DNA from: a virus
Lineage: Duplodnaviria > Caudoviricetes
Strand: one strand, 5' to 3'
Virus record (IMG/VR): IMGVR_UViG_2811995317_000003
Span: 23,425 to 87,424 of that record
DNA length: 64,000 nucleotides
Of the stretch, positions 18,356 to 34,486 are shown in pieces (positions within the stretch are counted from its first letter, which is position 1; every line of letters starts with the position of its first letter). Made by a program: the position numbers and the translations under genes. The notes under the pieces were generated by a model. That model ran no database searches. It saw nothing but the letters and a program-made list of their open reading frames with translations, and had not been told where the DNA came from.

Positions 18356-19519
18356 TTACGTGTTATTCGTACCCTCCTTGTTTTCCATATGGGACAGATT
18401 TGGGACACAATCGCCAAAAATTGAGTCGATTTGCTTGGCATGTTCGGTCAGATGATTTGGTGCCAGGTGTGCATACCGGCGTACCATTTCGATAGACTCC
18501 CACCCGCCCATTTCCTGCAGTACAGATATCGGTACTCCGGCCTGAACTAACCAACTTGCCCAGGTGTGTCTCAGATCGTGAAATCTGAAATCCTCAATAC
18601 CAGCTCGCTTTAATGCTGCCCGCCAGGCGGTGTTGGCGTCATACCGCATTTTCCTCACAGCTGGCGCTTTCGTTCCGTCCGGCTTAGTGCAGCTCTCCTT
18701 ATAGACGAACACCCATTTGTGGTGACTTCCTATTTGTCTTTTCAGCACGCGACATGCAGTATCATTCAGTGCCACGCCAATGGCCTGATTCGATTTGCTC
18801 TGCTCCGGGTGTATCCATGCCACCCGGCGCTGCATGTCAATCTGCTGCCACTCCAGATTGATGATGTTCGACCGACGAAGTCCTGTAGCCAGCGCAAACT
18901 CGACAACAGACTTTAGCGGCTCCGGGCATTCATCAATCAGCCTTTTAGCCTCGTGCGGCTCCAGCCAACGGATACGCTTATTCTTTGGCTGGGGAACCTT
19001 GACGATAGGGGCCTTATCCAGCATCTTCCATTCACGTTCTGCCGCACGGAGAAGCGCCTTGATAAATGAAAGGTGTGTGGCCTTTGTCGCCACCGATGCC
19101 GGGCGCGGAACGTAGTCAGGCGTTTCCTTGCCTTTCTTCGTTTGCGCAGCGTTCATCAGCTTCCAGTTTTCCTCATGCCTTCGGTTGGTCATCTTCTGTA
19201 TGGCGGCGTAGATCCGCGATTCAGTGATGTCCTTCAGTTGCATGCCGGCAAAGTGCTGGAGCCAGAATCCGATCCGGCTCTTATCATCATCCAGCGACTT
19301 CTTGTGCGCCTTCTCCTCAAGCCACCTGACACAGGCATCCTCAAATATCATGTCAGGAACCTCACCGAGCTTGCTCACCCGCCAGGCTTCGGCCTTTAGC
19401 TTGTCATGGAGTTCCGTGGCCTGCCTTTTGTCCTTTGTCCCAAGAGACTGCTTAAATCTTTTGCCGTCCGGCAATGTGAAGCTGGCGTACCAGGTTTCAC
19501 CTCTGCGAAAGAGTGACAT
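18356..19519 (-). CDS. int: Tyrosine integrase, P22-type (387 aa)
   Basis: [15 protein letters not shown] start; TGLRR, HDLRH and Y catalytic motifs. Confidence 0.95.
18390..18407. promoter_or_regulatory. Candidate integrase arm-type sites, prophage 2 arm
   Basis: TGGGACA twice with 11-bp period inside the int 3' end. Confidence 0.55.
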
Positions 19520-19746
19520 ATTAATTCCTCTCGTATGCCATCGCCCGCGCTCACCTGGACAGTATGCAGCGGTGACTTGAGCGCCGCAATGCAGGCCTGT
19601 CGGGTAGTGAGGTAAGGGGATTTTGGTTTGGATGGGTCTTTGCGGGTTGCCTGCAGTCTGCCGGTGCGGATCCAGTTCGCAGCTGTTGGTCTGGATATGC
19701 CCAGCATTGCGCAGGCCTGATTGAGAGTGATGCTGTATTGTTCCAC
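19396..19746 (-). CDS. xis: Excisionase, P22-type (116 aa)
   Basis: [20 protein letters not shown]; long overlap with int. Confidence 0.9.
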
Positions 19747-19760
19747 TGCGTTCTCCAGGC

Positions 19761-19787
19761 AAAAAAATGCCCTCGCAATGGAGGGCT
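19761..19787 (-). terminator. Intrinsic terminator upstream of xis
   Basis: GCCCTC-CATTGC-GAGGGC plus T-run on the minus strand. Confidence 0.7.
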
Positions 19788-19853
19788 GAAAGGGGGATAA
19801 CGTGGCAGTGCTTTCGCACCCAATAGCCAGCTCATAACTGGCTATCAGTTGCG

Positions 19854-26909: not shown

Positions 26910-26934
26910 AAAAAGGCCGCCTACCTGGCAGCCT
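26910..26934 (-). terminator. tL-type intrinsic terminator
   Basis: AGGCTGCC-AGGTA-GGCGGCCT plus T-run. Confidence 0.75.
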
Positions 26935-27011
26935 CAACCTGAATGAGTGCCGGGGTATTTATCCGCGCCCGGCGCGCGCTTTCCCGCTATTCCCCAACAG
27001 CAAGAAATCGC

Positions 27012-27353
27012 TTACTCTTTAATCTCCCCAACAGTAGAAAGGATATATTCATGCAAACCATGCGGACCGTGTGCCCTGACTGCGGAAGTGAGATGTTCAA
27101 CCAGCCCGATGATTTTGACTTTGAGACAAATTTCACCGGCGTCAGTTGTGCTGACTGTGGTCGAGAAATCACTAAGGACGATGTTGTCAATCAGGCCACG
27201 GACACGGTCAAAAAACAGATCGACGACATGCTCAGGAATTCCCTCAAAGGAACTGGCTGGAAGTTCAAGTAGCTTTAAAAGCTCCCCAGTCTGAGTAAGC
27301 ACCTCGCTGGCGTCTACGTTAAGCAGTAGTGGCGCCGTTTTTTTATCTGACAT
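27012..27353 (-). CDS. First pL-operon ORF, hypothetical; not N or Nun
   Basis: RBS GAGGGG just after putL; no Arg-rich motif; partly antisense to a zinc-ribbon gene. Confidence 0.45.
   Translation of the reverse strand: MSDKKTAPLLLNVDASEVLTQTGELLKLLELPASSFEGIPEHVVDLFFDRVRGLIDNIVLSDFSTTVSTTDAGEICLKVKIIGLVEHLTSAVRAHGPHGLHEYILSTVGEIKE
27051..27272 (+). CDS. Small zinc-ribbon protein
   Basis: CPDC...CADC; RBS AAAGGA; opposite strand to the pL operon. Confidence 0.7.
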   Translation: MQTMRTVCPDCGSEMFNQPDDFDFETNFTGVSCADCGREITKDDVVNQATDTVKKQIDDMLRNSLKGTGWKFK

Positions 27354-27413
27354 ACACACCCCTCTGATTGTTTACCGTCAGCCCCTCGCAAAGAGCTGTT
27401 GGTAAATCGCTTT

Positions 27414-27481
27414 GCCATAATTGCCGCTCTTCCTGAGCCCGCCTATGGTCCGACGCATGGTTTACTGTCGCGCCGTTCGAC
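27414..27481 (-). ncRNA. putL: putL-like cis-acting antiterminator RNA (HK022 type)
   Basis: GTCGAACGGCGCGAC-AGTAAACCATGCGTCGG-ACCATAGGCGGGCTCAGGAAGAGCGGCAATTATGGC just after pL; two-stem architecture matching recalled HK022 putL. Confidence 0.85.
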
Positions 27482-27513
27482 TGACCGAAACGCTGTGTTG
27501 TTTCGATGGGCTT

Positions 27514-27556
27514 ATAATGTACTGAAAGTTCATTCATGTAAAGTACCAATAGTACA
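27514..27556 (-). promoter_or_regulatory. pL promoter with OL1 and OL2 operators
   Basis: -35 TTTACA, 17 bp, -10 CATTAT; 15-bp TGWAC-N5-GTWCA sites at 27518-27532 and 27542-27556. Confidence 0.8.
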
Positions 27557-27616: not shown

Positions 27617-28324
27617 TTATCCGAACCGACGATAATCTATCGACTGACGAAGCAAGACCTTGGCTACCACGTGAAGCTGGTCTTCGTCAGCTTCTTCAAT
27701 ATGCCAGCGCTCGTATATCGGATTGTCAGATATGACAACTAGCTTGTCTTTCTGCATCTGCAGGCGTTTTACATGAAGGGTTCTGCCATAGACGAAAACA
27801 TAAATTCCGTCAGCATCAAAATGGTTAACGGACACATCAACGAAGATCTCGTCACCAGGATTGATAGTCCCCTCCATGCTGTCGCCACTAACAGTGATGA
27901 CTTTTATATGGTCTTGAGGCCTGCCATTAAATAAAGTTCTGGCGTGCTCAGTTGTGTACTCAATAGCCCTGACCTTCTCAATGAATTCATTGGAAATCAT
28001 AGTCCCCGGCCCAGCACTCGCTTGAACATCTAATACGTCCACTCGATAAGAGTCGGACACCTTAGAGGCGTGGTTAGGTGTGATACCGTCCTCTGTAGCG
28101 TACCCATGAAGGTAAGCAGCTGTAGTCCCCAGCACCGATGCTAGCAACTCCATCTTCTCCTTTCTTGGAACCGATTCGCCATTAAACCACTTACTTACGG
28201 CCTTCGGTGTGAGTTTCATTCTAGCAGCTAGATCAGCCTGCCTGCCATGTTGTGGAAGTCCCGCCTTATCACAGGCCAGCGCAAGCCTTAGCGAGAATTT
28301 TTCACGCTCATTTTGTTGAACCAT
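27617..28324 (-). CDS. cI: CI repressor, HK022-like (HTH plus S24 peptidase), 235 aa
   Basis: MVQQ.ERE.FS.RLALACDKAGLP N-terminus; ASAGPG cleavage site, GDSM and VKRL. Confidence 0.92.
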   Translation of the reverse strand: MVQQNEREKFSLRLALACDKAGLPQHGRQADLAARMKLTPKAVSKWFNGESVPRKEKMELLASVLGTTAAYLHGYATEDGITPNHASKVSDSYRVDVLDVQASAGPGTMISNEFIEKVRAIEYTTEHARTLFNGRPQDHIKVITVSGDSMEGTINPGDEIFVDVSVNHFDADGIYVFVYGRTLHVKRLQMQKDKLVVISDNPIYERWHIEEADEDQLHVVAKVLLRQSIDYRRFG

Positions 28325-28388
28325 CAGTTCAACTATATCTGTACTTGACTGTACTATCAGTTCCGTCATAATATGAACTACAAGTTCA
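28317..28388. promoter_or_regulatory. OR operators and pR
   Basis: TGAAC-CATCA-GTTCA 28317, TGTAC-TATCA-GTTCC 28350, TGAAC-TACAA-GTTCA 28374; TTGACT...CATAAT. Confidence 0.8.
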
Positions 28389-28403
28389 CCACTGGAGATG
28401 CAA

Positions 28404-28634
28404 ATGAACGAAGTTACGTTTGGACACGTCATTAAATCCGTTCGTGTGTCTGTTGTGGCTGAGGTTTGCGGACTTACGCCCAAGGCCATTTACAAATGGA
28501 TTGAGCGTGGTTCTCTGCCGCGTACCGAGTTTACAGGAGAAACCGAGTACGCGGACAAGATCGCCAAAGCATCAGGCGGCAAGTATTCAGCAGCACAGAT
28601 TCGCCGTATCGGTAAGCAGAAATTAGTCATGTAA
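28404..28634 (+). CDS. cro: Cro repressor, HK022-like
   Basis: Divergent from cI; CGLTPKAIYKW HTH, LPRTEFTGET. Confidence 0.88.
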   Translation: MNEVTFGHVIKSVRVSVVAEVCGLTPKAIYKWIERGSLPRTEFTGETEYADKIAKASGGKYSAAQIRRIGKQKLVM

Positions 28635-28640
28635 TAAAAA

Positions 28641-28655
28641 TGTACTTTTAGTACC
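28641..28655. promoter_or_regulatory. Extra operator downstream of cro (OFR-like)
   Basis: TGTAC-TTTTA-GTACC matches the operator consensus. Confidence 0.65.
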
Positions 28656-28715
28656 GAACGGCCCGGTATATGGTCGGGTGCCCGGCGTGGTCATGGATGA
28701 CTGTCAATGGTGCAC
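28652..28715 (+). ncRNA. putR: putR-like antiterminator RNA
   Basis: TACCG-AACGGCC-CGGTA-TATGGTCGG then GTGCCC-GGCG-TGGTCA-TGGA-TGAC-TGTC-AAT-GGTGCAC; same layout as putL. Confidence 0.78.
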
Positions 28716-28772: not shown

Positions 28773-29072
28773 ATGGAAAACTCAATTAATCGCAACAAGG
28801 CCAATGCCCAGCGCATTTTGTCCTGGTTGCTTAACCAAATCGCCATGAAAGGTGGCAACAACGTAGCTAAAGAGATCGGCGTCGATAAGGCACAGATAAC
28901 ACGCTGGAAAGAAACGTGGCTGCCGAAGATGGCAATGCTATTGGCAGTTCTGGAGTGGGGTGTCGTTGATGACGATATGGCGCGGCTGGCAAAGCAGGTT
29001 GCAGAGATTCTCACCAATAAAAAACGCCCGGCGGCAACCGAGCGTTATGACCAGATGAATATGAACTTCTAA
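28773..29072 (+). CDS. cII: CII-family transcriptional activator
   Basis: A.RI.S.LLN.IAM.G...VA..IGVDKAQI.RWK..WLPK.AMLLAVLEWG. Confidence 0.88.
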   Translation: MENSINRNKANAQRILSWLLNQIAMKGGNNVAKEIGVDKAQITRWKETWLPKMAMLLAVLEWGVVDDDMARLAKQVAEILTNKKRPAATERYDQMNMNF

Positions 29073-33532: not shown

Positions 33533-33639
33533 CCAGAGACGAGATAACCCGGTACCAGGCAGAAAGCGTTAAGCGCGCCAGCCTACCGCCAGTAGCAAAG
33601 CACAGCCAGACCAAACAACCTAAGAAGGAAGCAGCATGA
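33529..33639 (+). CDS. 36-aa ORF between rusA and Q
   Basis: GTGA and ATGA overlaps at both ends. Confidence 0.55.
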   Translation: MTRDEITRYQAESVKRASLPPVAKHSQTKQPKKEAA

Positions 33640-34259
33640 GAAAGCTCACACCAATTTACTCCATGGTCAACTTTGTCGATGACGCTCACTTCCGCCGTGT
33701 CTGGAAGCATCCCAAAAAGACCATAACCCCAAAGCAACGGGCATGGGTGCAGTACATGCTGACTGTGTGGGGTCGCATTAACCGTGGCGATGATTCTCCT
33801 GCCGGTGCCATTAACGTCATTGGCCGATTGATGATCCGCAGCCAATGGAGTCCTGATATGGGTGGACACATCGAGAGGATGGTCAACTGGCTTTATAGCG
33901 ATGAAGGAGGGGCGCTGAGAGGTGAGGCGCTTTATAAAAAAGCTCGCGAACTGGTTATCCCTCAGTCATCAGCCAGCAACATCATCGCTCTCGCCAAAGA
34001 ATCAGATGATGCCGCATTCGTAGAAAAAGTGATGGTTAAGCTGTTTCACCGGGAAAGCCCAGTCCGCGATTATGCAATTAAACGTTATTGTGAGCGCAAC
34101 TGCACTCAACATATCGCTCAGGCAATGAGCAGAGTAACCGGCGTGGATGTGCAGCAGTGCCGCCGCCGGGTCGTGTGGTGCGAGAAGGTTTTTGAATCAG
34201 AACTCTTTTATGCCTTACAACGTGAGATGGAGAAAGAAAACGAACTTCAGGCCACTTAA
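33636..34259 (+). CDS. Putative late antiterminator Q (non-lambda type)
   Basis: Position between rusA and the late promoter; C-terminal HTH-like region. Confidence 0.6.
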   Translation: MRKLTPIYSMVNFVDDAHFRRVWKHPKKTITPKQRAWVQYMLTVWGRINRGDDSPAGAINVIGRLMIRSQWSPDMGGHIERMVNWLYSDEGGALRGEALYKKARELVIPQSSASNIIALAKESDDAAFVEKVMVKLFHRESPVRDYAIKRYCERNCTQHIAQAMSRVTGVDVQQCRRRVVWCEKVFESELFYALQREMEKENELQAT

Positions 34260-34283
34260 TTAGAAAATATTTATCTGAAAGTG

Positions 34284-34311
34284 TTGATTTGGCGAAATGA
34301 AAGTGCATAAT
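34284..34311 (+). promoter_or_regulatory. Candidate late promoter pR'
   Basis: TTGATT-16bp-CATAAT just after Q. Confidence 0.5.
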
Positions 34312-34458
34312 TCAGTATATGCTCGGACGTCAAAGGCGAAAGAGCGCGGTGATGAAGTGCAAGATGACAGCGCTCATGAATCGGGGACATCGAAAGCCCA
34401 AAAGCTGAATTGTGTGGCGACAGCAAAAACGCGACTTGAGCCATCACCAATAATTTAG

Positions 34459-34486
34459 AGCCACTGGTTAACGCCGGTGGCTTTTT
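34459..34486 (+). terminator. tR'-like intrinsic terminator
   Basis: AGCCACTGG-TTAACG-CCGGTGGCT plus T-run. Confidence 0.8.

Follow-up and report, generated by a model that had tools for sequence, protein, structure and literature searches.

Two questions are raised by the start of the leftward early operon in this DNA: how its transcripts would pass the terminators that lie ahead of them, and what a small extra hairpin is doing at their 5' end. The put RNAs are the textbook example of RNA polymerase being reprogrammed by an RNA, with no protein involved; in HK022-type phages they bring about terminator readthrough in cis without a phage protein, and the trait is abolished by mutations of the beta-prime zinc-binding domain (rpoC-Y75N). 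An earlier note had proposed, from the letters of the sequence, that a putL-like RNA with an additional 5' hairpin lies here directly after an HK022-like pL promoter. Within the stretch of DNA analysed (64,000 nt, referred to throughout as the window), positions 27507-27414 of the minus strand very probably belong to a mosaic lambdoid prophage, in which they begin the pL transcript and encode an HK022/HK639-type putL antiterminator RNA. This identification is supported by sequence identity, conserved polymerase-contact nucleotides, covariation, genomic context, and the fact that no N, Nun or nut was detected by the searches described below.

Both hexamers of the pL promoter are of the sigma-70 type and match, column for column, the pL hexamers annotated in the HK022 immunity region of phages O276 and HK75, and HK022-like operators overlap them; the promoter proposed in the earlier note, directly upstream of put, thus stands. 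By homology to A1 of HK022 (numbering of Hwang et al., 2022; PMC9378689), transcription is predicted to begin at the A at 27507. The order on the minus strand is pL, the extra hairpin (designated P0), a 3-nt linker, and put (27482-27414), and the features of the locus and its surroundings are listed in Table 1. HK022 put position n corresponds to window position 27485 minus n, and this numbering is used for all put nucleotides and pairs below.

Table 1. Window positions of the features of the putL locus and its surroundings, with the evidence for each.
Feature	Position	Strand	Sequence or remarks	Evidence
pL promoter	27514..27542	-	-35 TTTACA (27542-27537), -10 CATTAT (27519-27514)	consensus scan; alignment to annotated HK022 pL of O276 and HK75
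P0 hairpin	27486..27505	-	CGAAAC, 8-nt loop, GUUUCG	fold; 14 distinct sequences
putL stem I (HK022 positions 3-34)	27451..27482	-	identical to HK639 put	pairing scheme from cryo-EM description
G35 junction and putL stem II (positions 35-71)	27414..27450	-		sequence; alignment
Third hairpin	27372..27405	-	UUUACC..CAGCUCUU..AGGGGCUG..GGUAAA	fold; HK639 alignment
First pL gene	27012..27359	-	115 aa, HK639_45 homologue	PHROG scan; HK639 comparison
Terminator-like hairpin	26910..26933	-	GGCUGCC-AGGUA-GGCGGCC + UUUUU	read from sequence and folded; unlisted by consensus scan
Three terminator-like sites	20838-20821, 20644-20631, 19786-19769	-		consensus scan; fold
Immunity genes	27617..28634	- and +	cI-like repressor (-), longest ORF 27617-28489, start probably further in; cro (+), 28398-28634	PHROG matches; S9-5 and HK022 annotations
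putR	28652..28715	+	between cro and cII	alignment with annotated putR of O276 and HK75

The sequence fits the two-stem scheme of the cryo-EM structure; two stems had been read from it before. Stem I consists of a duplex of positions 3-7 with 15-19, a pseudoknot-like duplex of 10-14 with 30-34 (CGGCG/CGUCG, the loop-to-3' pairing, which is kept as claimed), a third strand at 21-25, and a bulge at 26-29 that includes U28. Stem II has a lower stem CCAUA/UAUGG, the conserved internal element GGCGGG/CGGCAAU, an upper stem GCUC/GAGC, and the loop AGGAA. The exchanges relative to HK022 that the earlier note had listed are all present: pair 5-17, A-U in HK022, is U-A in the window (GAC/GTC to GTC/GAC), pair 48-58, U-A in HK022, is C-G (GTTC/GAAC to GCTC/GAGC), and the base stem of stem II has been replaced. 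Pair 3-19 is an A-A mismatch, and a C2-G20 pair is possible instead. The 28-nt stem-I pattern occurs once in the window versus none expected (100 shuffles), and no second putL-like copy was found in the window using the putL pattern with up to 3 mismatches.

Polymerase contacts, made with the beta-prime zinc-binding domain and the beta flap tip, involve eleven put nucleotides (A8, A9, G11, U28, U32, C33, G34, G35, A63, A64 and U65; Table S2 of Hwang et al., 2022, PMC9378689; PDB 7XUE), and all eleven are identical in the window. Positions at which mutations inactivate HK022 put (the 3-7 duplex, U28, G35, G45, A64, and the G43-G47 block; PMC9378689) are also all retained, with pair 5-17 altered compensatorily. 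The lower part of stem II carries no bulged nucleotide of the HK022 U68 type, and A36 lies opposite A72, unpaired; deletion of U68 from HK022 put in vitro causes loss of antitermination but not of anti-pausing (PMC9378689). The A72 allele is recurrent, with core and flank identical in at least eight IMG/VR loci besides the window, further loci carry UAUGGCA, and other putL variants have a lower-stem bulge at shifted positions. From this recurrence in natural sequences, we read the A72 difference as one that is probably tolerated.

Thermodynamic folding of the whole leader was unexceptional (z = -1.55), which is expected because the folding program cannot model a pseudoknot and a triplex, and the fold gains no support from it. 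Rfam 15, searched with the gathering cut-off and again with E values of up to 10, gave no hit beyond chance snoRNA-like matches. IMG/VR was scanned with one strict stem-I pattern, resulting in at least 120 putL loci, so that both the spread and the mosaicism of put go far beyond the ten put sequences used in the 2022 structural paper (Hwang et al., 2022; PMC9378689). From the loci listed, 37 distinct putL sequences were aligned, and the cryo-EM pairing scheme was found to be paired in 92.3% of cells, against 23-48% for slid controls. Cells changed on both sides numbered 128 versus 46 in shuffles, and none of 500 shuffles reached the observed value. Such changes are found in half of the pairs overall (11/22) and in 9 of the 12 pairs of stem II, which is the main carrier of the covariation signal; the duplex 10-14/30-34 is invariant and uninformative for covariation, its bases having been fixed in the search pattern. 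A minimum-free-energy fold computed for the complete leader, in which the 5' strand of stem I pairs beyond stem II, was rejected, and covariation supports the cryo-EM scheme.

BLAST against deposited phages aligned window 27489-27301 with coliphage HK639 at 96.8% identity over 189 nt; the put core matches at every base (100%) the feature labelled "putL-like antiterminator RNA" in HK639 (GenBank HM208537, misc_feature 34187-34312). Alignment to HK022 and other put-bearing phages places the element in the HK022 putL family. The window and HK639 have in common a put core that runs from GGUCAGUCG to UUAUGGC, as well as the third hairpin downstream of it and the first pL gene; they differ in promoter, immunity region and leader, which is long in HK639, whereas the window has the 20-nt P0 hairpin behind an HK022-like pL. 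In HK639, moreover, A36 pairs with U72 (A72 in the window) and C71 is bulged out, and no put is annotated in the examined part of its rightward operon, whereas the window prophage has an HK022-type putR. The HK639 put has reportedly been tested and found to give readthrough. The put RNA here is an already described element and the locus is a further mosaic member of the family; because the put core is the HK639 one, the locus adds no new principle.

The locus resembles HK022 in having put after pL and after cro, in the two-stem fold with its two stem-I duplexes, in all contact and mutation-sensitive positions, and in its operator and promoter layout, but the first pL gene of HK022 is nun, whereas an unrelated 115-aa ORF takes that place in the window. 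In its upstream part the locus agrees with S9-5 and vB_SalP_ABTNLsp11242, phages with an unannotated putL that have the same pL, operators, P0 and stem I (95.5% identity over 202 nt, 27620-27419) but a stem II with an HK022-like upper part and a lower stem CACCA/UGGAUG. Since these phages share stem I but not stem II, the homology breakpoint of the mosaic window lies inside put. The putL loci collected here offer recombination breakpoints within the element as well as a rich covariation set backing the cryo-EM pairing scheme. Two other IMG/VR loci (L064:1202-1279 and L081:2780-2857) have an intact put stem I followed by the boxA-like CGCUCUUUAACAA, which replaces stem II; they resemble a put/nut recombination hybrid, joined where the window switches from S9-5-like to HK639-like sequence.

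The rightward counterpart, putR, was detected by reading the cro-cII spacer and then by alignment. Two positions separate it from HK022 putR, and an OFR-like operator (AATGTACTTTTAGTAC, ~28641-28655) precedes it, as in HK022. Exactly two put-like sites are present in the whole 87-kb IMG/VR provirus record; because an HK022-like putR is one of them, the prophage has the complete two-site HK022 design, its HK639-type putL core notwithstanding. The neighbouring genes on the right are cI, cro, cII, an Ant-like gene, O- and P-like replication genes and a Q-like gene. The leftward genes are the 115-aa ORF, kil, a gam-like gene, recT, exo, two HNH genes, methyltransferases, and int.

No N or nun gene and at least four downstream terminators had also been claimed for this DNA, and the searches bear out both points. 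No PHROG match to an N-like family was found among the first nine pL genes, the first pL gene encodes a protein that lacks an arginine-rich motif and is neither N nor Nun, tblastn with Nun gave no match (best E = 1.7), and the exact lambda boxA, CGCTCTTA, is absent from the 64 kb. The lambda N/nut system (boxA-boxB) has the same function and the same positions after pL and after cro, but the window, with no N-like gene, arginine-rich first pL protein or boxA, is not a member of that family. Four hairpin-plus-U-tract sites lie downstream on the pL strand and, as consensus-type matches only, are candidate terminators: one is found immediately after the first pL gene, and the other three flank a methyltransferase gene, upstream of int (18356-19819). 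The third hairpin (-16.6 kcal/mol, z = -2.46), which separates put from the first pL gene's ribosome-binding site, is kept in HK639, inside the HK639 feature annotated as put, and is not a terminator because no U-tract follows it.

Could the put-like sequence be an inactive relic, with early antitermination achieved through an unrecognised protein or not needed at all? Its lower stem II is unlike that of HK022, and no function is known for the first pL gene or for several others. Against this, core and flank recur unaltered in the further IMG/VR loci noted above, the core is that of HK639, every contact and mutation-sensitive nucleotide has been kept, putR is intact, and no arginine-rich motif is found in the first pL protein, and we consider an inactive relic scarcely credible.

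By analogy with HK022 (PMC9378689), the nascent leader RNA would fold into the two-stem, V-shaped put structure and remain attached to the transcribing polymerase through its beta-prime zinc-binding domain and beta flap tip. Bound put would hold the polymerase in a non-swivelled, pause-resistant state and oppose hairpin formation in the exit channel, and the polymerase so modified would pass the terminator-like sites at ~26.9, 20.8, 20.6 and 19.8 kb, allowing kil, gam, recT, exo, the methylases and int to be expressed without an N-like protein. For the rightward operon, putR would act likewise. Polymerase binding, terminator readthrough and dependence on the beta-prime zinc-binding domain are what we infer for this putL, from its identity to the HK639 element and its preserved HK022 contact surface. 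P0 would lie outside the put fold, at the extreme 5' end of the transcript, and join put at A3. The published pair list puts the A3-U19 pair at the outer tip of stem I, well clear of the interface with the polymerase, and HK022 putR works although it is ~270 nt from its promoter (PMC9378689); for both reasons a 5' extension such as P0 should be sterically tolerated.

P0 occupies +3 to +22 of the predicted transcript and has a 6-bp stem; folded with its two flanking pairs, it reaches -7.3 kcal/mol (z = -3.67), and none of 200 shuffles folds as well. The hairpin is thus real, and it is missing from the HK022 leader, as the earlier note had stated: HK022 put begins at transcript +3. Because HK022 lacks it, P0 is not required for put activity as such. 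It is a small conserved 5' hairpin and the only previously undescribed feature of the locus. Among the matches listed it is found in 12 of 120 IMG/VR putL loci, and it is also present in the deposited Salmonella P22-like phages S9-5 and vB_SalP_ABTNLsp11242 and in single-representative genomes of Kluyvera sichuanensis, Escherichia sp. ESNIH1 and Lelliottia sp. P0 is combined with at least six promoter/operator (immunity) types and at least five stem-II types, and it invariably starts 2 nt past a conserved CAT. In one P0-type putL, on a Lelliottia sp. WAP21 contig (L135), UAAACCAU is replaced by UAAUCCAU; this natural A24U substitution falls within the third strand of the stem-I triplex and also within the proposed -10-like element discussed below.

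Pairing within P0 is seen in 100% of cells in the 14 distinct sequences. In 4 of the 14, one A-U pair is G-C instead; it is the sole compensatory pair. Three single changes to G-U or U-G pair solely on the pL-sense RNA, being C-A on the opposite strand or asymmetric as DNA. With a single compensatory pair, this pattern tentatively favours a constraint at the RNA level over a DNA operator. A caution against over-reading P0 comes from phiEt88, which has a 22-nt leader, of the same length and similar 5' sequence, that cannot form the hairpin.

It is conceivable that the CGAAAC/GTTTCG repeat acts as DNA, as the site of a regulator that roadblocks or modulates pL just past its start. It is a perfect 6+6 palindrome, the A-T to G-C double changes preserve the DNA palindrome too, and HK022-type phages use the roadblock-like operator OFR after cro. 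Its half-sites, however, are unlike the adjacent HK022-type operators, variants (CGGAAC and CGAGAC with GTTTCG, and TGAGAC) break the DNA symmetry while keeping G-U pairing in the sense RNA, and the occurrence of the repeat with so many immunity and operator types speaks against a repressor-specific site. A DNA site is therefore very unlikely.

The leaders of other putL loci bear on the origin of P0. HK639 (L001:2948-3007) and about half of the IMG/VR putL loci listed have a highly conserved leader of ~58 nt before put, with two GCGAAG motifs and a base helix in common with P0. The flanks of this long leader are those of P0 (AUCGAAAC ... AUUCGGUCAGUCG), and ~45 nt replace the P0 loop. The leader of locus L032 is an intermediate form, and because of it and of the common flanks, P0 and the long leader are taken as versions of one module. 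Thermodynamic folding of the long leader was not significant (z = 0.16), and the variants of this leader differ too little to show covariation; no description of the HK639 leader was found in the open full-text literature. P0 might accordingly have no function of its own and simply be tolerated, either as a remnant of a shortened HK639-type leader or as a hitch-hiker of a shared pL initial-transcribed module. This fits with RCIP0114 and Omnitron, non-put phages that have the same promoter and a CAUCCAAACAACAC start, with the module relationship just described and with the leader of phiEt88; HK022 put works leaderless, and putR works far from its promoter. Retention of the pairing in 14 of 14 distinct P0 versions and across the immunity types speaks against it, as does a set of changes made up of one compensatory and three wobble changes with no disrupting one, and we regard the absence of any function as possible but doubtful.

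The leaders also place put at different distances from the start site, with A3 at +3 in HK022, +26 in the window and ~+61 in HK639, which makes them a ready-made test of a published suggestion. The -10-like AACCAU, at +23 to +28 of HK022 putL, was proposed to cause a sigma-dependent pause that aids folding (Hwang et al., 2022; PMC9378689). AACCAU is located at +46 to +51 in the window and ~+81 to +86 in HK639, and the P0-type Lelliottia L135 has AUCCAU, without the key A at position 2 of the -10-like element. This shift and this substitution suggest that AACCAU owes its conservation mainly to the RNA fold and the U28 pocket.

P0 could, alternatively, tune put activity and have no bearing on mRNA stability. 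By moving put 23 nt further out it might alter the timing of folding relative to sigma-70 release or to the proposed pause, whose -10-like element is displaced here and in HK639, or it might compete transiently with the third strand of put, since the GUUU of the P0 3' arm reads as complementary to put A22-C25. This alternative pairing, however, comprises just 4 bp, leaders of 0, 23 and ~58 nt all precede the same put stem I, so that spacing seems free, and L135 does without the key A of the element; a tuning function appears improbable to us.

Certain E. coli mRNAs, ompA among them, carry 5'-terminal stem-loops that stabilise them. P0 has in common with these a stable hairpin, at most two unpaired nucleotides at the predicted 5' end, and a long transcript, and the likeness is a resemblance only. 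Our best guess, a tentative one, is that P0 is a protective or insulating 5' stem-loop of this sort, which would shield the long pL mRNA from 5'-end-dependent decay and prevent mispairing of the leader with put. That P0 is a neutral remnant is nearly as likely as this protective role, and a tuning role is possible. A broader proposal would make P0 an accessory module with a function in one subclass of putL leaders, where it would control the capture of polymerase by put (its efficiency or timing) or the lifetime of the pL message; on the evidence given here this is unlikely. If it were true, the HK639-type leader would be a larger build on the same base helix, and the leader series would indicate that it is RNA structure and contact with beta-prime, rather than a promoter-proximal sigma-dependent pause, that preserve AACCAU. 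The locus singles out a conserved 5' hairpin whose role is readily testable.

Three further features were observed in the surrounding sequence. Nested antisense in the first pL gene is a 109-aa ORF (26943-27272, plus strand) with a weak PHROG match (phrog_4852, E = 1e-8). On the minus strand, a strong terminator-like hairpin (29023-29046) lies opposite the 3' end of cII, where lambda has the terminator of its oop RNA. The Q-like gene (33636-34259) is followed on the plus strand, at 34284-34484, by a promoter-like site and a terminator with a 12-bp stem, which is the expected pR'/tR' late control region.
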